Part shown: piece after piece, positions 4,149 through 21,935 of the stretch | How the letters are laid out: the number at the start of each line of letters is the position of its first letter | How positions within the stretch are numbered: position 1 is the stretch's first letter | Virus genome (UHGV): UHGV-0068847 | DNA from: a virus | DNA: 27,295 nucleotides | Direction: 5' to 3' (one strand) | Position numbers and translations under genes: made by a program | The notes under the pieces: model-generated | What the model was told of the DNA's origin: nothing | The model's input: only the letters and a program-made list of their open reading frames with translations | Database searches by the model: none

Positions 4149-4684
4149 GCGGCACATTGGCGCTGCTCCATCAACTCATTAAAGCGATTTATGAACATGC
4201 CGTATGACTGGCCTGGACGAACTGGGTTGATGATGAATAGGTCCGTCGGGACAACGCCATTGAGGCATGGCCACACGGAACCTTCGTCAATTTCAAAATC
4301 GCGGCGTTCGCTGGCGAGCATCACCAGATCGGCATATTTCACGGTTGGGTGTTGCTCCATAGGAAGGCCAAATTTCTGGCGAATAGCAGCGTCTACGCGA
4401 GCTTCGATCACCTGGTAATCCGGTAACAGGCGCTTAAGCGGTGAGGGGATATCCTGCAGGTATGCTTCGGCGGCATCATGAAGCAGTGCTTCTAATGCAA
4501 ACTCCTGCGGAACGAGATGGCTGGTTAAAACGCTATGCTGGCCGACGCTGTAAAACTCAGGAAGATGCCCAGCAAAGCGGCAGATATGAGACAACGCGGT
4601 AGCGATATCTTCGATCACGATATCGTCCTGTTGGATATCGAGGTAATTAAAATGTTTGCCGGATAATGTCTGAATGTAGCTCAT
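4145..4684 (-). CDS. yfdR: HD-domain phosphohydrolase, YfdR-like 5'-deoxynucleotidase (179 aa)
   Basis: H...HD...D pattern (LSHICRFAGH, ALLHDAAEAY, DLVMLASERRD). The ATG at 4684 is preceded by GGAGAAAACC. Size and motifs match the recalled CPS-53 YfdR. Confidence 0.82.
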   Translation of the reverse strand: MSYIQTLSGKHFNYLDIQQDDIVIEDIATALSHICRFAGHLPEFYSVGQHSVLTSHLVPQEFALEALLHDAAEAYLQDIPSPLKRLLPDYQVIEARVDAAIRQKFGLPMEQHPTVKYADLVMLASERRDFEIDEGSVWPCLNGVVPTDLFIINPVRPGQSYGMFINRFNELMEQRQCAA

Positions 4685-4776
4685 GGTTTTCTCCATATTG
4701 GCGCGCTGCACCGCGCAGATTTTGGTTGCACGAATCCCTCGCCGGTTGGCGATAATTAATGGAATTACGCTTCAAT

Positions 4777-4800
4777 AAATCCCCGCGGCGCCGGGGATTT
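4777..4800 (-). terminator. Stem-loop between the yfdQ-like and yfdR-like genes (possible intra-operon terminator or processing site)
   Basis: Perfect 9-bp stem AAATCCCCG/CGGGGATTT with a 6-nt loop. On the minus strand it is followed by TTTATTGAAG, which is only moderately U-rich. Confidence 0.45.
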
Positions 4801-4812
4801 AATGCAGAGCAA

Positions 4813-5640
4813 TTAGGCTTTAAAGTTACCGATGAAAGTTTCCACTGATTCACCGTCGAACTTGCTGATCAGCAAATCGCGGAATTCGTTGGCGATCTCT
4901 TCTTCCTGGGCTTCAAGTTGGATGATGCGCAGAACAAAGCAGGGTTCATCGCTGGTCAGCAGGCTGTTACGCAAGCTAAAGCGGCGTTCGCCCAGACCTT
5001 CATACGGCACACATTTGAACTCGAATGCCACAGGCATTACGTCTTTGCTGCTTGCTTCAACGCTTTGCATCAGGGATTTTTTACCAGCGAAATCACTAGT
5101 TTCATGGTCCTGCTGGGTTGCTTGTTGAATGGTGATACGACGCACTGCCTGAGCCGCCTGGGAAATCTGCATCGTATTACCATCGGCATCAAACGCCAGC
5201 AGGTAATCACTCCAGTCTTCCAGCCATTCAGCAATTTGCTTTTGCTTCAGACGTTGACCATCGATCTGCAGTAACGCGCGGAACGGGGCGGTTTTCTTCA
5301 GGGTGATTGAAGCAACGTTATCGGCGTGACCGGGATTATCCAGGGTGCCGATGTTGAACACTGAACGGGCGGTCATATTGTCAGCGTCAATGAAGCAACG
5401 AGCTGGCTCACTGTCGCTGGCGTAACCTTTAGAATAACGTGCGAAGTCGTCAATACTGGTTGTGGTCATTGCGCCACGAAAGCGGAAACGCTCCAGAGAA
5501 AAGCGCTCAAGGCTTTCAACGCCAGTACCATCTGGCAGCAATGCGGTCGGGCAAGCCAGGCCATGAATATCATTCAGGTGATAACCTGAAAGAACCAGGT
5601 CTTTGACCTGCTTGAAGGTACCGCTGTCTAACTGAGACAT
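4813..5640 (-). CDS. yfdQ: YfdQ-like DUF2303 family protein (275 aa)
   Basis: Long clean ORF with an AGGA SD 6 nt upstream. Family assignment is from recall of the CPS-53 yfdP-yfdQ-yfdR order and size (about 274 aa). Confidence 0.8.
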   Translation of the reverse strand: MSQLDSGTFKQVKDLVLSGYHLNDIHGLACPTALLPDGTGVESLERFSLERFRFRGAMTTTSIDDFARYSKGYASDSEPARCFIDADNMTARSVFNIGTLDNPGHADNVASITLKKTAPFRALLQIDGQRLKQKQIAEWLEDWSDYLLAFDADGNTMQISQAAQAVRRITIQQATQQDHETSDFAGKKSLMQSVEASSKDVMPVAFEFKCVPYEGLGERRFSLRNSLLTSDEPCFVLRIIQLEAQEEEIANEFRDLLISKFDGESVETFIGNFKA

Positions 5641-5696
5641 AAAAATTCCTTATTAACTGATGATCAAAGTGGTATCAGTGAGTTTGTTGTTGCGGA

Positions 5697-6068
5697 TCAC
5701 TGTGCCGCTTTAAGCTTTCCATCCACCGCGCCAGTGATCCCGAACAGCTGACCCTGATCTTCCTGCAGGATGGTTAGCTTCCCGCCTTTGTTGACCCACA
5801 TCGGGGTTTCGGTTGTGTCCTCTTCGGAGGCTTTACCACGCGGTGTCGGGGTGCTGTAGTTCAGCTTGTGCTTGATCTTCACGCGCTTCTCTTCAACGGA
5901 ATTACCCATACGCTCAAAATCAAATGTGAGGACTACTTTGCCTTTGTTGCCGTTGTTCAGAACGCCAAGCGCGGTAGTATTAAGTGCTGCCGCGATTTTG
6001 TTCATGAACACGCCGGCATCCAGTTCGCCAAGAAAATCTGGCACTACGGTCATGCGGTCATTACTCAT
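5697..6068 (-). CDS. Hypothetical early protein, positionally YfdP-like (123 aa)
   Basis: Clean ORF with a GAGGG SD 7 nt upstream. First sizeable gene of the leftward operon. The family name rests only on synteny recall. Confidence 0.7.
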   Translation of the reverse strand: MSNDRMTVVPDFLGELDAGVFMNKIAAALNTTALGVLNNGNKGKVVLTFDFERMGNSVEEKRVKIKHKLNYSTPTPRGKASEEDTTETPMWVNKGGKLTILQEDQGQLFGITGAVDGKLKAAQ

Positions 6069-6298
6069 GGTTTTACCCTCGTTAAGGCGGCTGCAACCGC
6101 CGAACTTTCTCCATACACAACAGAGAAGGGCACCTGCATTGGTCGGCGGCTTGCAGAGACCGCTTTCTTTTTGCCCGGGTGGATTGGGTTATGAGCCCGT
6201 CGCCCGGTGATGCCCTTTTCTGTTGTGCCTTGAAAAAGGCTGGCGGTTACCGGACAAGTGGGAAAACACCGGGCCGCCAGAATAGTGGTACAAGGCAT
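6065..6298 (-). CDS. Questionable 77-aa basic ORF in the pL leader
   Basis: Strong SD (GGTGAGGATAACAAATG) and an ATGA overlap with the next gene. However, the region is GC-rich and hairpin-dense, several frames are open on both strands, and the amino-acid composition is odd. Confidence 0.35.
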   Translation of the reverse strand: MPCTTILAARCFPTCPVTASLFQGTTEKGITGRRAHNPIHPGKKKAVSASRRPMQVPFSVVYGESSAVAAALTRVKP

Positions 6299-6343
6299 TT
6301 GTTATCCTCACCAAACGTACCAATGATTACGTTTGATGATTTA

Positions 6344-6372
6344 AATGTACCTTTAGTTACCTTTGCGGTCAA
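6344..6372 (-). promoter_or_regulatory. Candidate pL promoter
   Basis: On the minus strand: TTGACC (6372-6367), 17-nt spacer, TACATT (6349-6344). The spacer and -10 are overlapped by operator box A. Confidence 0.55.
6346..6365. promoter_or_regulatory. Operator box A (TGTACCTTTAGTTACCTTTG)
   Basis: One of three near-identical 20-mers, 19/20 identical to box C. Overlaps the pL -10 and spacer. Confidence 0.6.
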
Positions 6373-6380
6373 GCGAGTAA

Positions 6381-6400
6381 TGTACTTTATGTTACCTTTG
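6381..6400. promoter_or_regulatory. Operator box B (TGTACTTTATGTTACCTTTG)
   Basis: 18/20 identical to box C. Lies just upstream of the pL -35. Confidence 0.55.
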
Positions 6401-6407
6401 GGAATGT

Positions 6408-6432
6408 AAAAAAGCCGAGGCTATGCTCGGCT
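6408..6432 (-). terminator. Intrinsic terminator downstream of the repressor gene
   Basis: 7-bp stem AGCCGAG/CTCGGCT with a 6-nt loop. On the minus strand it is followed by TTTTTT (plus-strand A-run 6408-6413). Lies 17 nt past the cI stop. Confidence 0.7.
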
Positions 6433-6448
6433 CTTAATTTTGAAGGGA

Positions 6449-7108
6449 TTAAATGTTTTGAGTGATTTGTACAACTTTTCCGACAATGCGACAGTTACCA
6501 TCAATTTGGATTGGCTTAAATAACGGATTCAGTGGCATTAGGTATGAGTAGGGGCTATCCCAAACTAATTTTTTAACCGTTGCTTCTGATGTCCCATCCA
6601 ATATAGCAACGACTATTTTCCCATATAGATCATCAAGCTGCCCATAATGGGGCTCGACTATAACAATAGAACCTTCTGGTATAGATGGAAGTCCTTGCGG
6701 GTTAGTCATCGACTCACCGCGGACTACTAACCCAAACGCTTCATCCGATACATTTGCAGTTGTTTGAGTCCAGGAAATCACGTCTGTAAGTCTTGAGCAG
6801 GCATAGCTATCCGTCCATAAACCGGCTTGAACTGCCGATATGATCGGTACAGCTACAGGGGGTTTCAAAAAAGGCACGACGCGCGTGTCGTCAATGGCCT
6901 CATCACCGCTTCCATAGAGTATCCACTCTGGTGTTGTTGATAGAGCCTGAGCCAACTGGTGAAGGTTCTCACCATCAGGCTTTGTCGTGCCGTTTTCCCA
7001 TTTTGTAACCGATACACGGCTTACACCAAGCTTTTTAGCCAGTGCTAATTGGGTTATATCCAGCTGGATTCGTCTGGATCTGATGCGGTCTTTCATCTCT
7101 GTTTTCAT
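6449..7108 (-). CDS. cI: cI-type prophage repressor (XRE HTH plus S24 LexA-like autopeptidase), 219 aa
   Basis: N-terminal HTH (LTQLALAKKLGVSRVSVTKWENG), an Ala-Gly cleavage site (VQAGLW), the catalytic Ser in RGESM and the Lys in ATVKKL. Divergent from the cro-like gene. Confidence 0.92.
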   Translation of the reverse strand: MKTEMKDRIRSRRIQLDITQLALAKKLGVSRVSVTKWENGTTKPDGENLHQLAQALSTTPEWILYGSGDEAIDDTRVVPFLKPPVAVPIISAVQAGLWTDSYACSRLTDVISWTQTTANVSDEAFGLVVRGESMTNPQGLPSIPEGSIVIVEPHYGQLDDLYGKIVVAILDGTSEATVKKLVWDSPYSYLMPLNPLFKPIQIDGNCRIVGKVVQITQNI

Positions 7109-15391: not shown

Positions 15392-15670
15392 ATGACCAGA
15401 ATGAGCACCATTTACAGCAGACTTTCATATGGATCAGGAACCACGCTTGCCGGCTGCGGTGTATCAGCGAAGGCATATGCCGAAACAGCTAAAACAGCAA
15501 AAGAGGTGTCCTGGATGTTGGCCGACAGAATTGCAGGGTTAAGCCTGAGCGACTGGGCAATTATTGTCGGTATCGCATGCACAGTTATCACTTGTGCAGT
15601 GAACTGGTATTTCCGCTGGAAAGAACGGGAGGATCGGCGCAATGGCTATGCCACCAAAGCTGAAGAATAA
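15392..15670 (+). CDS. Class II holin, probable pinholin with a dual-start motif (92 aa)
   Basis: MTRM dual-start motif (Met1-Thr-Arg-Met4). A weakly hydrophobic G/A/S-rich first TM segment and a strong second TM segment (WAIIVGIACTVITCAVNWYF) are followed by a charged tail. Strong GGAGG SD. Overlaps the endolysin start. Confidence 0.8.
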   Translation: MTRMSTIYSRLSYGSGTTLAGCGVSAKAYAETAKTAKEVSWMLADRIAGLSLSDWAIIVGIACTVITCAVNWYFRWKEREDRRNGYATKAEE

Positions 15671-16190
15671 ACTGAGCGCAGCGGTCGTTGGTTTGATTCT
15701 TGCGGGGGCTTCCGCGCCCGTGATTCTCGATCAGTTTCTGGATGAGAAAGAGGGTAACAGCCTGACAGCATATCGCGACGGCGGCGGAATCTGGACTATT
15801 TGCCGTGGCGCCACGATGGTTGATGGTAAGCCAGTAGTTCAGGGCATGAAGCTGTCTGCTGAGAAATGCGCCAAGGTGAACGCCATAGAACGCGACAAGG
15901 CGCTGGCGTGGGTTGAGCGAAATATCAAAGTACCACTGACCGAACCACAGAAAGCGGGTATTGCGTCATTTTGTCCTTACAACATCGGCCCCGGAAAATG
16001 TTTCCCTTCTACGTTCTATAAGCGCATTAACGCTGGTGACCGTAAAGGCGCCTGTGAAGCGATCCGCTGGTGGATTAAAGACGGCGGCCGCGACTGTCGT
16101 CTGACCAAAGGCCAGAAAAATGGGTGCTATGGGCAGGTCGAGCGGCGCGATCAAGAAAGTGCGCTGACGTGCTGGGGGATTGACCGGTGA
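15642..16190 (+). CDS. SAR endolysin (GH24 T4-lysozyme-like), 182 aa
   Basis: Catalytic E-x8-D-x5-T triad ([16 protein letters not shown]). The N-terminal G/A-rich signal-anchor-release segment is [19 protein letters not shown]. Confidence 0.92.
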
Positions 16191-16651
16191 GTCGACTAAC
16201 AAACATCATCATTACTGTGATCATCTGCATAATCTTATCTCTAGGCTGGGCCGTTAACCACTACCGCGACAACGCGATCACCTACAAAGACCAACGCAAC
16301 AAAGCAACTGAAAAGCTCAGCCTAGCTAACGTTACTATCACCGACATGCAAACCCGCCAGCGCGATGTCGCTGCACTGGATGCCAAATATACGAAGGAGT
16401 TAGCTGATGCGAAAAACACCATTAGCGGTCTACGTGGCGATGTTGAGTCTGGGCGCAAGCAGCTGCGCGTTGCAGCCGCCTGCAATAAAGTGCGTCAAAC
16501 CACCGACACCGCCAGCATGGATGATGCAACCGGCCCCAGACTTACTGACACCGCTCAACGGGATTATTTCACTCTCAGAGAGCGAATAGAAACTGTCACC
16601 AAGCAACTTGCCGGATTACAAGAATATGTCAGTGCGCAGAATTTAAAATGA
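16187..16651 (+). CDS. Rz: i-spanin Rz (154 aa)
   Basis: N-terminal TM segment and coiled-coil body. The C-terminal [10 protein letters not shown] motif resembles lambda Rz. GTGA overlap with the endolysin stop. Confidence 0.9.
16407..16589 (+). CDS. Rz1: o-spanin Rz1, embedded in the +1 frame of Rz (60 aa)
   Basis: Lipobox-like LGASSC. The segment [27 protein letters not shown] is near-identical in pattern to lambda Rz1. GAAGGAG SD 7 nt upstream. Confidence 0.88.
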
Positions 16652-16711
16652 CTTGTCACCTATTTCGCTGTCTGATTAGTTATTCAATATTAGTTGGCAT
16701 AGCGTTAGTAA

Positions 16712-16957
16712 TTAACTGCAATGGCTATGACTGCAATTAATTATGGCATCAGCTTTGCTTGATGAGGATGATGGATATTTTTCGGATAAGAATTTCTGTA
16801 TGTCTTCAACAGCTTCGATGCTGACTCTAATATTTGTATGGCCATTGTTTTTTAAATAATTAACTGCTTCATCTATAAGGTTGTTTTCTGATAGAAATTT
16901 GATAACAATGGCAAAGTTATCAACGCCGGTTTCGGTTAAAAGTTCACAGTTAGGCAT
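16712..16957 (-). CDS. Hypothetical 81-aa acidic protein (third gene of the small triplet)
   Basis: AT-rich ORF with a CTGGAG SD inside the end of the preceding gene and only a 5-nt gap. No plus-strand ORF competes. No domain recognised. Confidence 0.6.
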   Translation of the reverse strand: MPNCELLTETGVDNFAIVIKFLSENNLIDEAVNYLKNNGHTNIRVSIEAVEDIQKFLSEKYPSSSSSKADAIINCSHSHCS

Positions 16958-16962
16958 GGTTG

Positions 16963-17211
16963 TTACTCCAGTGATGTAAATGAGATTTTATTTTGGATTG
17001 TTTTTTTATCAGCGTGGGTGATATGTTTGTATGATTTTTGAGGTTGCCTAAACACAAAAGTTGTATTCAAAGTAATCGAGCTAATTAGGGTGGGCCGCTG
17101 GTTTGGTAAGGTCAGGGGATTAACTCTTATTCTATTACCTTTCTGCGTTGCCATAACCATGGGCAGACCCATCGTAATGGTAGTTTTTGAATAGGCCGCT
17201 AATGAATTCAT
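16963..17211 (-). CDS. Hypothetical 82-aa protein (second gene of the triplet)
   Basis: The ATG at 17211 forms an ATGA overlap with the upstream stop. T/S/N-rich sequence that looks beta-rich. No domain recognised. Confidence 0.55.
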   Translation of the reverse strand: MNSLAAYSKTTITMGLPMVMATQKGNRIRVNPLTLPNQRPTLISSITLNTTFVFRQPQKSYKHITHADKKTIQNKISFTSLE

Positions 17212-17396
17212 GGCGCATGGTTTTGGGAGGCGATTTGCAAGCAGGCATCTCGGACTTGTATCGCAAGACGAAGCCCTTCCTGAAATCTTGCTGATGCGTT
17301 GGGATCGTTTGCTGAATTTAGATAGACATTAAAAAGCTGCATGATGGTAACGCTATATGCTTGCTTAATAGCATTTTCAGTAATTGTTTCGTCCAT
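17208..17396 (-). CDS. Hypothetical 62-aa helical protein (first gene of the triplet; track ORF extends to 17456)
   Basis: The internal ATG at 17396 is preceded by GAGGAG 7 nt upstream. The remaining 5' part of the track ORF lacks an SD. Confidence 0.55.
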   Translation of the reverse strand: MDETITENAIKQAYSVTIMQLFNVYLNSANDPNASARFQEGLRLAIQVRDACLQIASQNHAP

Positions 17397-17482
17397 CGAG
17401 AATCTCCTCGGTAGCATAGATGACAGGTTTACTTCCGTCTTACCATAGGTCATCAATGGGATTACTTTAATAGGAAAGAAGC

Positions 17483-17605
17483 ATGAGCAAGCCGGACTGG
17501 GAGGTCATCGGGGCGGCGTACTGTGCCGGAGTGATGGCCCTCCGTGAAATTACATCGCAGCACGACATTAGTGAAGGGACAATGCAGAACCATACTAACT
17601 ACTGA
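17483..17605 (+). pseudogene. 40-codon fragment resembling the N-terminal HTH of a phage small-terminase or DNA-binding protein
   Basis: Hand translation gives MSKPDWEVIGAAYCAGVMALREITSQHDISEGTMQNHTNY*. The pattern (MSKPDW..I...Y..G..SLREI...H.IS.G) is typical of such N-termini and ends prematurely. Confidence 0.45.
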
Positions 17606-17635
17606 GTGAGTGAAACAGACAATATCATCGGTAAG

Positions 17636-17767
17636 GATGATGGCAATAGCCCCCGACTTACTGACGCCGCTAAACGGGATTATTTCACCCTCAGAGAGCG
17701 AATCAGCACCATCACCGGGCAAGTGAGTTACTTACAGGATTACATCAGGCAGCAATGTTTGAAGTGA
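17636..17767 (+). pseudogene. Duplicate 3' end of an Rz gene, with an embedded Rz1 3' end
   Basis: Translates to [43 protein letters not shown]. The +1 frame gives [17 protein letters not shown]... About 65 nt are highly similar to 16521-16586. There is no 5' part. Confidence 0.8.
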
Positions 17768-17801
17768 ATGGCCGCTAGACTTAGCCAGCCATTTTAAAGA
17801 G

Positions 17802-18227
17802 TTAACCAACGGTTAATGTGGAAAGCAAATGCGAAGTTTCCCCAGAGCAGTTAACAGTGGTTTCGTTGTAAGGGAATTCACCCGTATACTCGCTATTTGC
17901 AGGGGGAGTCATTTTGTTAATCAATGCAGCTTCTGCGCGCACCCGATCATCTTTTCCAGTAATAGTAGCGACGGAATAGCAGAGAGTCTCACCGACCATT
18001 AAATGTTCATTCCAGTCACCCAGCCTGTCGTGCGTGGCCACACGGGATCGGACGTTCGATGATTCGCCGATATAAATCAACTTACGAATTTCGAGTGTTG
18101 TCTTGGAGCCATTAGTAACAGCTTTGCATGCGTATACGCAGTAGATTCCTGACTGATCTGGAACGCCACTCTTATTGGCTTCACGCCAATACCCATCAAA
18201 TTGCAGATTAATTGTTTTACCAGTCAT
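17802..18227 (-). CDS. Stand-alone GIY-YIG nuclease-domain protein (141 aa)
   Basis: SGIYCVY...LIYIGESSNVRSRVATH, then RAEAALINKMTPPANSEY, supplying the GIY, YIG, Arg, Glu and Asn elements in canonical order. AGGAG SD 8 nt upstream. No extra DNA-binding domain. Confidence 0.8.
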   Translation of the reverse strand: MTGKTINLQFDGYWREANKSGVPDQSGIYCVYACKAVTNGSKTTLEIRKLIYIGESSNVRSRVATHDRLGDWNEHLMVGETLCYSVATITGKDDRVRAEAALINKMTPPANSEYTGEFPYNETTVNCSGETSHLLSTLTVG

Positions 18228-18647
18228 TTATAGCTTCTCCTAATTACGCCAACAATAGCGCAATAGGGAAGTGGGGAGATAAATCCAAGTTACAATGAGC
18301 AATCAGTATTTCAATGACTTATGTCATGATTTTCTTATTAATTATAGAAAATATGGGGTTTTTCCATGATGACTGCCATCGTGATAGCAGGTCGCTCAGC
18401 CATTGAACGGTAGGTTGTTTGTTACACAGGCTGCCATTACAGAGGCATTCACTGAGCGCCTGAGATAATGCACAATAACTCCCCCTGTACTGAAGGAAAT
18501 GTGGAAGAGAAAAATTCCATAGGGAGCAGACTAATCTGTAGGGATTGTCTCGATATCATTAGCGCGGTCATCCGGAAAGAATGGTTGATATGTACTGATT
18601 AGTCAAAATCATGCAGAATAGTCACAGTATAAATATGCGAGGCTATC

Positions 18648-19151
18648 ATGAATTATATTTACCAATTAGTGATCTCTGTAGTAGCGGGTGGACTTGGTGC
18701 ATGGATTGCAATGTTATTTGCTTTAAAACGTTTTTATAGTGAAAAGTGGTGGGAGAAGAGAGCAGGGGCCCTTATTGAATTAACTAATGCAATTTATCAG
18801 GTAAAGGTTCTACAAGATTATTATTCTGATTTGAAAGAGTATCAACGATTAGGTCCAGATGAATATCCAAACTTTATCAAATTGAGTGCTGAGAAACTTA
18901 GTAAATTACAAATCTCAGCTGCTGAGGCAAAAGATTTAATAGTAAAATATAGCAATATCGGCCCCTTGCTGGTTACTGAATCAGTATCAAAACTTCTAAC
19001 TGATTATTTGAAACGAGAAGATAAGGTTGACTATGAAGTTAATTTTCAGGGGTTAGATACAGATGATGCTGAAGAACATCTCTTATCGTTGACAAATAAA
19101 CTTCTGGAAGATTTAGTTAAAGAATCAAAAAGCGTTCTTAAAGCAAAGTAA
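18648..19151 (+). CDS. Single-pass membrane protein with a helical/coiled C-terminal domain (167 aa)
   Basis: N-terminal TM helix YQLVISVVAGGLGAWIAMLFAL followed by K/E/L-rich helical sequence. Very low GC. GAGG lies 5 nt upstream of the ATG. No family recognised. Confidence 0.75.
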   Translation: MNYIYQLVISVVAGGLGAWIAMLFALKRFYSEKWWEKRAGALIELTNAIYQVKVLQDYYSDLKEYQRLGPDEYPNFIKLSAEKLSKLQISAAEAKDLIVKYSNIGPLLVTESVSKLLTDYLKREDKVDYEVNFQGLDTDDAEEHLLSLTNKLLEDLVKESKSVLKAK

Positions 19152-19168
19152 TCTAGAAGAAAACCTAA

Positions 19169-19197
19169 GGGCACTAAATGTGATGTGCCCATTTAAT
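19169..19197 (+). terminator. Weak stem-loop after the membrane-protein gene
   Basis: GGGCAC-10 nt-GTGCCC followed by ATTTAATT. Confidence 0.4.
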
Positions 19198-19279
19198 TGT
19201 GCATACGCTAAGAGAATCATTATAGGGATAGCTTATAAATCGAATTGTGAAATTGATATTTATTATCGTTTGCGGGTCC

Positions 19280-19480
19280 TTTCCAGCGATCCGCTCCGTT
19301 ACGGGGCGGCGACCGCGCAGATTCTCGCTATTTATGAAAATTTTCAGGCATTTGCCGTTTCCGTTCTTCTTCTCGCTAATTCATTGTTTTAACTGTAAAC
19401 ACCCCCTGAAAAGAAAGGAAATGATAAGCCTTAAAAACGGCTAAATAGCCAGAGGGCGTTTCCTTTCTCTGTTTTTGTGC
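19280..19480 (+). other. Lambda-type cos site (cosN cohesive-end sequence at 19304-19315; cosB R3, R2 and R1 terminase boxes)
   Basis: CGTTACG|GGGCGGCGACCG differs by one base from recalled lambda GGGCGGCGACCT, and TCGCTATTTATGAAAATTTTC follows. R3 CGTTTCCGTTCTTCTTC is at 19356-19372, R2 CTGAAAAGAAAGGAAATG at 19406-19423, and R1 CGTTTCCTTTCTCTGTTTTTG at 19457-19477. All lie directly upstream of nu1. Confidence 0.88.
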
Positions 19481-19492
19481 ATGGAGTGAGCT

Positions 19493-20038
19493 ATGGAGGT
19501 CAACAAAAAGCGTCTTTCTGAAATATTTGGGGTCAGCGTGCGAACCATTCAGAACTGGCAGGATCAGGGAATGCCTGTAGCACGTGGCGGCGGAAAAGGT
19601 AATGAGGTCCTCTATGAATCTTCCGCGGCTATTGAATGGTATTCCGCACGCGACGCGGCGATTGAGAATGAGAAATTACGGAAGGAGGTGGAAGACCTTC
19701 GTCTTGCATCGGAATCCGACCTTCAGCCTGGTACGATTGACTATGAGCGTCATCGCCTCACCCGGGCACAGGCTGACGCCCAGGAACTAAAAAATGCAAA
19801 AGATTCCGCTGAGGTGGTGGAAACCGCATTCTGCACGTTCGTGCTGTCGCGGATGGCCGGAGAAGTAGCCAGCATTCTTGATGGAGTTGCTCTGTCTGTT
19901 CAGCGGCGCTTCCCGGAGCTGGAAAACCGACATATTGATTTCCTCAAGAAGGACATCATTAAAGCCATGAACAAAGCAGCTGCGCTGGATGAAATAATAC
20001 CGGGGTTGCTGAGTGAATATATCGAACAGTCAGGTTAA
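19493..20038 (+). CDS. nu1: Terminase small subunit Nu1 (181 aa)
   Basis: MEVNKKRLSEIFGVSVRTIQNWQDQGMPV...SEYIEQSG is near-identical to recalled lambda Nu1 along its full length. Confidence 0.97.
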   Translation: MEVNKKRLSEIFGVSVRTIQNWQDQGMPVARGGGKGNEVLYESSAAIEWYSARDAAIENEKLRKEVEDLRLASESDLQPGTIDYERHRLTRAQADAQELKNAKDSAEVVETAFCTFVLSRMAGEVASILDGVALSVQRRFPELENRHIDFLKKDIIKAMNKAAALDEIIPGLLSEYIEQSG

Positions 20039-21935
20039 GGGGCTGCAGCACTCTGCGCGCGCGGGTCTACTTTCGCTGTACCGACCTGAGCCGCAAACGG
20101 CGGTTGAATGGGCAGACGATAATTACTATCTCCCCAAAGAGTCGGCCTACCAGGAAGGGCGCTGGGAAACATTGCCATTTCAGCGCGCGATCATGAATGC
20201 GATGGGTAACGACTACATTCGTGAAGTTAACGTTGTTAAGTCTGCCCGTGTTGGCTATTCAAAAATGTTGCTGGGTGTTTATGCGTATTTTATACAGCAC
20301 AAGCAGCGAAATTCCCTTATCTGGCTGCCCACGGATGGTGACGCCGAAAACTTCATGAAGTCGCATGTTGAACCCACGATCCGTGATATTCCGTCACTTC
20401 TGGCGCTGGCCCCCTGGTATGGCAAAAAGCACCGGGACAATACGCTCAGTATGAAACGCTTCTCCAACGGTCGCGGGTTCTGGTGTCTGGGGGGTAAGGC
20501 GGCGAAAAACTATCGCGAAAAGTCAGTGGATGTTGCCGGCTATGACGAACTCGCTGCTTTTGATGAGGATATTGAGAAAGAGGGTTCCCCGACGTTTCTG
20601 GGTGATAAACGTATTGAGGGCTCTGTCTGGCCTAAATCTATTCGTGGCTCAACGCCAAAAACAAAGGGGACCTGCCAGATTGAGCGTGCTGCCAGCGAGT
20701 CCGGGCATTTCATGCGCTTTCATGTTGCCTGTCCGCACTGTGGTGAAGAGCAGTACCTTAAGTTCGGCGACAAAGAAACCCCGTTCGGGTTCAAATGGAC
20801 ACCGGGCGAACCCTCCAGCGTCTTTTACCTGTGTGAACATAATGCCTGCGTCATTAAGCAGCAGGAGCTGGATTTCACTGAAGCTCGTTACATCTGCGAC
20901 ACCACCGGGATCTGGACGCGCGATGGTTTATCCTGGTTTTCATCAACAGGCACAGAAATCGACCCGCCGGACAGCGTGACGTTTCACATCTGGACGGCAT
21001 ACAGCCCATTTACCACCTGGGTACAGATCGTCAAAGACTGGCTAAAAACGAAAGGGGATACCGGAAAGCGTAAAACCTTCGTGAACACTACGCTGGGCGA
21101 AACATGGGAGCCTAAAATTGGTGAACGGCCTGACGCGGAGCTCATGGCCGAACGCAAAGAGTTTTTCGGGGCATCCGTACCGGATCGTGTTGCTTATCTG
21201 ACAGCCGGGATTGACTCCCAGCTGGATCGATATGAAATGCGCGTCTGGGGATGGGGACCCGGAGAGGAAAGCTGGCTGATTGACCGGCAAATCATTATGG
21301 GCCGTCATGATGATGAAGCGACCCTCGTCAGGGTGGACGAGGCGATTAACAAAACCTACTCCCGAAAGAATGGCGTGGAAATGTCGGTATCCCGTATCTG
21401 CTGGGATATCGGCGGTATTGACCCGACCATTGTCTACAATCGCTCAAAAAAGCATGGCCTGTTTCGCGTGATCCCGATTAAAGGGGCTTCCGTTTACGGT
21501 AAGCCCGTCGCGAATATGCCGCGTAAACGCAACAAGAACGGCGTTTATCTGACGGAAGTGGGGACTGATACCGCAAAGGAGCAGATTTATAACCGCTTCA
21601 CACTTCAGCCGGAAGGGAGTGAACCTCTTGCCGGAGCCGTGCATTTTCCCAATAACCCCGAAATTTACGATCTGGCTGAGGCTCAGCAACTGACTGCTGA
21701 GGAGCAGGTTGAAAAATGGGTGGACGGGCGTAAGAAAATCGTCTGGGACAGCAAAAAGCGACGAAATGAAGCGCTGGACTGCTTCGTTTATGCGCTGGCG
21801 GCCCTGCGGATCAGTATTTCGCGATGGCAACTGAATCTTGATTCACTGCTCGCGAGCCTGCAGGAGGAAGAGGGGAGCCGGACCAATAACAAAACCCTGG
21901 CTGATTATGCCCGGGCATTATCTGGAGATGAATAA
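20013..21935 (+). CDS. A: Terminase large subunit A (640 aa)
   Basis: Collinear with lambda gpA (MNISNSQV...ARALSG). Overlaps the nu1 3' end as in lambda. Confidence 0.98.

Follow-up and report, generated by a model that had tools for sequence, protein, structure and literature searches.

A Stand-Alone GIY-YIG Nuclease and a Membrane Protein as Probably Independent Cargo Genes of a Lambdoid Citrobacter Prophage

Introduction

GIY-YIG nucleases can serve in defence against phages. Two described examples, CMoRE/PD-T4-3 (PMC12923530) and SNIPE (PMC13190303), both carry sensor or anchor domains. This paper concerns two divergent genes of a lambdoid prophage, the virus genome UHGV-0068847 (27,295 nucleotides (nt); "the window" denotes this whole stretch of DNA). 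One, at 17802..18227 on the minus strand, encodes a stand-alone GIY-YIG nuclease of 141 amino acids (aa); the other, at 18648..19151 on the plus strand, encodes a 167-aa single-pass membrane protein and lies 420 base pairs (bp) away. The original prediction, made from the letters of the window, read the pair as a plausible two-gene abortive-infection or exclusion module and, as a fallback, as two independent morons. Comparison of their diverged relatives supports the fallback: the two genes are very probably independent cargo.

The nearest published analogue of a membrane protein combined with such a nuclease is SNIPE (PD-lambda-1; PMC13190303), in which a transmembrane (TM) anchor and a GIY-YIG nuclease act in anti-phage defence. 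SNIPE is one polypeptide with TM, DUF4041 and GIY-YIG parts, whereas here the TM protein and the nuclease are encoded by separate genes that are found apart elsewhere. The nuclease has no TM segment, no DUF4041 and no PADLOC match to PD-Lambda-1, and the membrane protein likewise has no DUF4041. CMoRE/PD-T4-3 (PDB 9u75; PMC12923530), a single-gene GIY-YIG type IV restriction enzyme of E. coli, is 248 aa long and has a C-terminal modified-cytosine sensor domain and an inhibitory loop. In contrast, the window nuclease has no sensor domain, and PADLOC gives no PD-T4-3 match for it.

T4 endonuclease II (EndoII, DenA) works without an appended DNA-binding domain. With a chain of 134 residues in its solved structure (PDB 2wsh) it is similar in size to the window nuclease, of which it is the second-best structural match; these features make the earlier argument that a bare domain needs a partner less than compelling. 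EndoII differs in having no detectable similarity to the nuclease family profile at E-values (E) up to 1, and in being a lytic-phage gene directed against host DNA, whereas the window nuclease is antisense cargo of temperate phages and its family is mostly chromosomal. The best structural match is the N-terminal GIY-YIG domain of UvrC (PDB 1ycz/1yd3). UvrC is a multi-domain repair protein; by contrast, the window nuclease has no other domains and has a 22-residue GIY/YIG hairpin insertion. Nor does it carry the linker, zinc finger, NUMOD or helix-turn-helix (HTH) modules of homing endonucleases of the I-TevI, Seg and F-Tev types, as it consists of a single 141-aa domain.

Two further comparisons concern gene context. 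CapH/CapP is a switch for immune operons that is triggered by single-stranded DNA (ssDNA) (bioRxiv 10.1101/2022.04.27.489752; PMC13228613). Homologues of the nuclease lie divergently beside capH-capP in four of the loci discussed below, whereas the window carries neither gene. The lambda gene bor is a single gene antisense to the late operon downstream of Rz, and encodes a lipoprotein, not a nuclease. The window nuclease gene has the same slot and the same antisense orientation as bor-type morons, and its GC content is likewise off that of the backbone.

Co-occurrence of the Two Genes

Do the two genes belong together? Loci were fetched with 5-8 kb on each side of the focal gene: 74 nuclease-family loci from species-representative genomes, six nuclease loci from viral contigs and 80 membrane-family loci from viral contigs. 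Each of 188 loci in total (L numbers below) was searched with every member of both family alignments. Both genes were present in 18 loci, the nuclease gene alone in 84 and the membrane gene alone in 86. The 18 loci with both genes are all at least 99% identical and all represent one near-identical Citrobacter block. Among the diverged loci, the partner was found beside none of the 84 nuclease genes and none of the 86 membrane genes. The proposed two-gene module thus failed the co-occurrence test, and the idea of two independent morons stands.

The block in question is a 2.2-kb mosaic segment of 99.1% identity at 17147..19371, delimited by blastn against L011, L015 and L016 and by gene maps. 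It is the sole context with both genes, and is common to Citrobacter prophages with two different backbones, one of phi80/lambda type with a Nu1/gpA terminase and one of HK97 type with HNH/Terminase_4/TerL. Both proteins occur with identical sequence in assemblies of Citrobacter freundii and C. braakii; in the identical copies traced to contigs, the nuclease and membrane genes are always side by side with the same spacing. The presence of the pair in two backbones nonetheless counts as a single event, because the shared DNA is one 99.1%-identical block that also holds gene remnants.

Diverged relatives show what stands next to each gene when its present neighbour is missing. In Klebsiella prophages, a 63%-identical nuclease is encoded antisense in the same gap between lysis and terminase genes, and its divergent neighbour is an unrelated Ntn-hydrolase-like open reading frame (ORF). 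This 166-aa neighbour was considered as a diverged membrane partner and ruled out, as it has no similarity to the membrane protein and is Ntn-hydrolase-like. In the viral contig L183, a 66%-identical nuclease gene directly follows an intact Rz, next to a "putative phage metallopeptidase". What stands on the promoter side of the nuclease gene differs between phages: in Klebsiella it is the Ntn-hydrolase-like ORF, in L183 the phage metallopeptidase, and elsewhere CapH/CapP regulators are found. In Enterobacter prophages, a 60%-identical membrane protein gene is followed by a 485-aa glycosyltransferase-like gene and there is no nuclease gene.

The Intergenic Spacer and the Mosaic Block

The 420-bp spacer had been taken for a shared control region. 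It is instead composite, and its two conserved parts are each tied to loci with only one of the two genes. The nuclease-proximal part (18228..18440, minus strand) travels with the nuclease gene, as seen in alignments with nuclease-only loci of Klebsiella, Pectobacterium and L183. It contains GGAG at 18240-18237, a conserved box TTGCGCTATTGTTGGCGTAA at 18263-18244, a palindrome ATGACATAAGTCAT at 18327-18314 and a perfect TATAAT at 18346-18341. A TTGCGCTAnTGTTGGCGTAA box just ahead of the ribosome-binding site of the nuclease gene is kept in nuclease-only loci, and blastn similarity in the Klebsiella, Pectobacterium and L183 loci reaches window positions 18264-18327. The conserved elements suggest that this region may act as the promoter of the nuclease gene.

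The other part begins with a 30-bp near-palindromic element, AGAGGCATTCACTGAGCGCCTGAGATAATG, at 18441..18470, one end of which resembles an extended -10 (TGnGATAAT). The element recurs about 25-30 nt upstream of the ATG of the membrane gene in membrane-only loci, where 0 matches are expected by chance. Between it and the start of the membrane gene, the Citrobacter block has about 165 bp extra (18481..18647) that are absent from the membrane-only loci in the alignment. The extra sequence has no Rfam match, and its predicted RNA fold is unremarkable (z = -1.05).

The two genes are best regarded as separate cargo because their link vanishes among diverged relatives and the parts of the spacer are conserved separately.

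How does the nuclease gene travel? Its 3' end adjoins a remnant of the 3' end of the Rz spanin gene (53 aa; 17606..17767, plus strand), which is 55% identical to the C-terminal 51 aa of the intact Rz (E 6e-19) and forms DNA repeat D1. The same remnant ORF has a Pfam Phage_lysis match in L007. Rz-homologous sequence also adjoins the nuclease gene in L183 and in L019 of Klebsiella, and the Rz remnant together with the upstream region is conserved with L183, L019 and L030. The pattern points to a mobile unit in which the antisense nuclease gene is joined by a 3' fragment of Rz and by 100-250 bp of upstream sequence; recombination within Rz exchanges this unit.

Back to back with the Rz remnant lies a 40-aa N-terminal gene remnant (17483..17605, plus strand), which matches proteins of ~200 aa from phage loci that have only the membrane gene; over 32 aa at the N-terminus the identity is 78% (E 2e-19). 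Those loci list a 490-aa ORF (cluster C6), read as the large terminase, and the homologues of the remnant lie just outside the mapped span. The remnant may be a piece of a gene that occupies the small-terminase position, at the head of a terminase cluster, elsewhere. Together, the remnants at 17483-17767 record earlier recombination in the slot.

Several enterobacterial prophages repeat a ~30-bp near-palindrome of the ACAGGCATTCACTGAGTGCCTGTGATAATG type at the boundaries of cargo genes. In L023, L105, L106 and L108 it precedes the membrane gene by about 25-30 nt, and it is also found in L030 (7770-7790), L011/L014/L016 (4304-4324), L015 (3333-3353), L107 (2770-2790) and L111 (5936-5956). In Pectobacterium, it is also present upstream of the nuclease gene, at a locus with no membrane gene. 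The near-palindrome could be a promoter, an operator or a recombination boundary.

The 99%-identical block extends about 70 bp past the start of the phi80 cohesive-end sequence (~19304), even where it is joined to an HK97-type packaging module. This suggests that a lambda/phi80-type phage was the source of the block and that part of its cos region came along.

The GIY-YIG Nuclease

All catalytic motifs occur in the order that was originally described: G27-I28-Y29, Y52-I53-G54, an arginine in RSRVATH, E99 in RAEAAL and N111 in PPAN. The conserved arginine of RSRVATH is R62 and not R60. In an alignment of 24 diverse homologues (45-66% identity), the GIY and YIG motifs and R62 are invariant, as are H66 and N111, and E99 is kept in at least 90%. 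The spacings Y52-R62 (10), R62-E99 (37) and E99-N111 (12) equal those of UvrC. A homologue from Serratia marcescens (P0015, alignment A1) has lysine in place of the near-invariant catalytic glutamate and may be an inactive copy.

The Pfam GIY-YIG family (PF01541) matches below threshold (18.9 bits vs a gathering score of 22.6; E 0.0019), and therefore the fold was tested. AlphaFold2 on the family alignment gave a model with a predicted local distance difference test (pLDDT) score of 95.1, and Foldseek placed the UvrC GIY-YIG domain at the top with a probability of 1.0. The model has the alpha/beta fold of the superfamily, with extra strands at both termini that widen the sheet. The 22 residues between the motif tyrosines, noted earlier as an unusually long spacer, form one long beta-hairpin (strands 27-39 and 42-56). 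The low Pfam score reflects limited sensitivity and is compatible with the fold; a precomputed PF01541 match is present in six of the listed homologues. Assignment of the 141-aa ORF to the GIY-YIG superfamily thus rests on motifs and fold.

No domain is appended to this core. The protein is a single globular domain with no further Pfam domain, and the 120 best homologues are 118-173 aa long. The alignment of motifs, the AlphaFold2 model and the structural matches all support a bare, catalytically complete GIY-YIG nuclease, and judging from these features the protein is very probably active.

No true relative turned up when PDB sequences were searched with the family profile, and EndoII was absent at E up to 1; relatives in the PDB are reached by fold comparison only. 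The NCBI label is "GIY-YIG nuclease family protein". The window nuclease is a new member of a known superfamily, in an uncharacterised subfamily.

Distribution and Neighbours of the Nuclease Family

A pattern scan found 74 nuclease loci in 185,579 species genomes. Although rare, the family spans most bacterial phyla and extends to Thermoplasmata archaea, with identities of 35-60%. In phages, the gene stands antisense in the lambdoid prophages of Citrobacter and Klebsiella, in L183 directly after Rz, and in the P2-like Ralstonia phage RsoM1USA, the sole isolated phage with a homologue, where gp19 lies antisense between the tail genes gpS and gpV.

The neighbours are diverse, with 119 Pfam families among 142 upstream neighbours, and one arrangement recurs: genes for an XRE-type HTH protein and an M78 peptidase lie divergently upstream of the nuclease gene. 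Clustering placed an M78-type peptidase within 5 kb in 13 of the 74 genome loci, and PADLOC recognised capH/capP in six. Four pairs were checked in detail, in Terriglobia (L032), Latescibacterota (L056), Rhodospirillaceae (L071) and Arenicellales (L083). In all four, the genes divergently upstream of the nuclease encode CapP, matched over its full length (E 1e-56 to 1e-63), and CapH (E 1e-19 to 1e-25). HTH-cluster genes in four loci (not named in the clustering) end 114-138 bp from the nuclease start. The position beside capH-capP is the usual place of a regulated CBASS operon. The next large ORF downstream lies on the opposite strand in three of these four loci, which leaves the nuclease gene there alone in the regulated position. 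The association with CapH/CapP holds for only about 8-18% of nuclease loci.

Other defence genes appear near the nuclease gene at single loci: Drt2; a CBASS cyclase with a 2TM effector; a type III restriction endonuclease; PD-T7-4; DarG; and HamB-, AriA- or PtuA-like genes. In five Firmicutes loci, the nuclease gene adjoins a large serine recombinase.

Further arrangements were seen around the family. In Pectobacterium sp. PL152 (L030, 7286-11864), a chromosomal island carries the homologue, with the gene for a 130-aa HNH-type protein on one side and that for a 433-aa reverse transcriptase on the other; the Drt2 match (E 3.7e-206) from the pooled scan of downstream neighbours is probably this reverse transcriptase. 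L043, L050, L076 and L080 share a second recurrent arrangement, an upstream block divergent from the nuclease gene that consists of an M78-type peptidase, then a protein of ~110-150 aa and then one of ~200-275 aa. The latter two proteins have no Pfam match. The mad3 and mad8 models match five and four upstream neighbours, respectively, in the pooled neighbour scan, which does not tell the proteins apart.

In the Klebsiella prophages L019-L022 (~4262-6150), an Acb2/Tad1-hairpin gene lies on one side of the nuclease homologue, and on the other lies an ORF of 166-188 aa, which begins MTTVAWDG and has weak proteasome-beta/HslV (Ntn-hydrolase) similarity. Acb2/Tad1 is an anti-CBASS/anti-Thoeris sponge family, so this slot mixes counter-defence cargo with possible defence cargo.

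The Membrane Protein

The 167-aa protein matches the profile of phrog_17948 over its full length (residues 3-166, E 6.7e-21), and all 50 diverse relatives match the same PHROG, which is unannotated. As had been predicted, it has a single N-terminal hydrophobic helix (Kyte-Doolittle maximum 2.21, residues 7-25) and a helical remainder. In the family alignment, the hydrophobic helix spans residues ~4-26 and is directly followed by the invariant juxtamembrane motif LKRFYSEKWWEKR; the rest is predicted to be all-helical, and the AlphaFold2 model of the protein has four helices (pLDDT 82) and resembles a helical bundle. The basic cluster after the hydrophobic helix suggests, by the positive-inside rule, a cytoplasmic C-terminal domain. 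Searches for known functions gave little. Among the 50 diverse members there is no Pfam and no PADLOC family, a PADLOC match for the window protein proved spurious, and Foldseek of the model returned generic helical bundles only (best E 0.29), which is uninformative.

The family is large: of its 1323 representative clusters, 372 reach E 1e-10 or better. Its genes lie between lysis and terminase genes in close relatives, and between portal or MuF-type genes and genes read as scaffold and capsid in distant ones. Both flanking large ORFs are on the strand of the membrane gene in 75 of 84 evaluable loci, and the gene is thus usually a co-directional accessory gene of the late operon. The gene product is a membrane-anchored helical protein with a predicted N-out/C-in topology, normally read with the phage late operon. 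Superinfection exclusion, or the modulation of envelope or lysis events, are guesses at its role.

In Enterobacter prophages (L023-L028 and L118; in L023 at 5567-7024), the 485-aa gene is always 63 bp downstream of the membrane homologue on the same strand. The N-terminus of its product resembles family-2 glycosyltransferases (MftF-like, E 1.3e-7), and these two genes could be a separate conserved pair.

The Cargo Slot of the Prophage

The genes flanking the cargo are those of a lambdoid phage. A lysozyme gene (15642-16190) is followed by Rz (16187-16651) with an embedded Rz1-like ORF, then by the cargo stretch (16712-19151). A match to phi80 at 99% identity starts from its cohesive end at ~19304, and Nu1 (19493-20038) and the large terminase gene (20013-21935) follow. 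The slot is therefore the Rz-cos interval that was originally named. When the cargo region was compared at the nucleotide level with complete E. coli genomes and with GenBank phages, only the flanks were recovered (Rz, cos and Nu1). The flanks match phages that lack this cargo, and the same slot carries different cargo in related phages. An Rfam search of 16000-20000 found no match.

The composition of both genes departs from the 51% GC of the window, as expected of morons. The two had been described as very low in GC (27-32%), which holds only for the membrane gene, at 33.5% (28-38% in 60-nt lines); the nuclease gene has 45.5% (40-55% in 60-nt lines). With regard to a promoter and terminator of their own, the consensus scan is at chance level, and the TATAAT at 18346-18341 and the conserved upstream boxes are present.

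Between Rz and the remnants, the minus strand carries three small antisense ORFs (16712-17456; 81, 82 and 82 aa; GC 34-44%). None has an informative family, the best being a weak phrog_18434 match for the first. The second is called in some assemblies only, and the third is 62 aa in databases.

In one Citrobacter assembly (L014, 8711-11738), an integrase, three AlpA-family genes and a 324-aa ORF take the large-terminase position after Terminase_4. This looks like a satellite or island integrated in the packaging module of the prophage.

Possible Functions of the Nuclease

The explanation that we moderately favour is that independent accessory genes lie together in one Citrobacter mosaic block and that the nuclease acts alone in defence or interference. 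Two unrelated accessory genes very probably became neighbours in one mosaic block of Citrobacter prophages. The nuclease gene, of a sporadic but very widely spread family, moves singly, accompanied by its upstream region and a piece of Rz. It would act alone, probably as an oligomer like T4 EndoII, on the DNA of competing phages or other mobile elements, and the simplest role would be the protection of the lysogen from other phages. Action alone on competitor DNA seems most likely because the gene is mobile on its own, is inserted antisense in temperate phages and, in several distant genomes, is placed opposite CapH/CapP. A conflict nuclease is suggested by the antisense placement in two temperate lineages, the position beside CapH/CapP and the scattered defence neighbours. 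Taken by itself, a defence or interference role is possible and is put forward tentatively, at somewhat less than even chances.

How might such an enzyme spare the DNA of its own cell? Either substrate preference or tight transcriptional control would keep damage in check. The enzyme might favour modified, single-stranded or replicating-phage DNA, or its gene might be tightly repressed until infection.

Several points weigh against this explanation. It gives no account of how a free nuclease stays harmless in a lysogen, and both nuclease activity and a phage phenotype are predictions from sequence, modelled structure and gene context. The family is rare in phage collections (six IMG/VR loci and one isolated phage), and about 80% of its loci have heterogeneous neighbours with no defence signature. 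In the window itself, no HTH/M78 pair adjoins the nuclease gene, the promoter consensus and terminator scans found nothing above chance, and PADLOC gives only a weak PDC-S14 match for the nuclease (E 1.3e-4). The argument from defence islands is qualitative, as the neighbours were seen without a random-gene background for defence density. Finally, the comparative data leave room for functional cooperation of both genes in Citrobacter, where they may work together.

Which alternatives have to be weighed? The strongest, though unlikely, is that the nuclease serves the lytic cycle of its own phage, as T4 EndoII does, by cutting host DNA or that of competitors (a satellite or a co-resident prophage) after induction. 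The resemblance in fold and size to EndoII fits this idea, whereas sequence-level similarity to it is lacking. In all phage contexts seen, the gene runs antisense to the late operon and hence is not in the late transcript. Most of the family is chromosomal, in bacteria and archaea, and has no phage genes close by, and control by CapH/CapP is known for host immune operons.

Still less likely is a selfish free-standing endonuclease of the homing type, which would only spread its own gene into related phage genomes. The dispersal of the gene as a unit of its own would suit such an element, whereas the protein has no DNA-binding extension with which to recognise a long target, and neither do the listed homologues of 118-173 aa. 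The contexts of insertion are non-homologous (the Rz-terminase gap, the P2 gpS-gpV gap, beside recombinases, beside CapH/CapP), and 40-55% identity is held across phyla, unlike the rapid decay of homing genes.

A housekeeping repair or structure-specific nuclease (UvrC/Cho-like or Slx1/YhbQ-like), picked up by chance and with no role in conflict, is an improbable source of the gene. The N-terminal domain of UvrC is the best structural match, there is a weak NCBIfam Cho match (E 0.002), and CapP responds to ssDNA from DNA damage (PMC13228613). However, the Cho match scores 17.4 bits against a cut-off of 367 and covers residues 51-111 only, and the C-terminal domains of UvrC are absent. The small number of loci in the species-genome scan is a poor fit to a core repair function, and the gene is found in prophages, beside recombinases and near defence genes.

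Least probable of all is a single two-gene abortive-infection or exclusion system, a split SNIPE in which the membrane protein senses or tethers: divergent orientation at a distance of 420 bp, joint inheritance in two Citrobacter backbones and the demonstration by SNIPE (PD-lambda-1; PMC13190303) that a GIY-YIG nuclease can be used safely against phages when it is anchored in the membrane speak for it, and are outweighed by the complete separation of the diverged homologues, the one block with its gene remnants, the unlike GC (45.5% vs 33.5%), the conservation of each spacer half with loci lacking the other gene, a nuclease with neither DUF4041 nor a PD-Lambda-1 match, and the normal place of the membrane gene in the late operon.

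Conclusions

The region very probably holds no system of a membrane sensor plus a nuclease, and hence no new kind of system. It is a clear example of how the cargo slots of lambdoid phages gather unrelated genes by recombination through Rz fragments.

The region also points to an uncharacterised and widely dispersed family of minimal GIY-YIG nucleases. The placement beside CapH/CapP, the nearby defence genes and the antisense moron slots in two phage lineages make this family a reasonable candidate for defence. More tentatively still, the ~140-aa family might be an undescribed single-protein nuclease against phages or other mobile elements, without a sensor domain and among the smallest of its kind. 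In some genomes, the ssDNA-sensing CapP/CapH switch would gate expression of the nuclease, while in temperate phages the antisense moron would protect the lysogen. If this is true, the problem becomes how a bare GIY-YIG domain of 141 aa, with no sensor domain, tells foreign DNA from its own.

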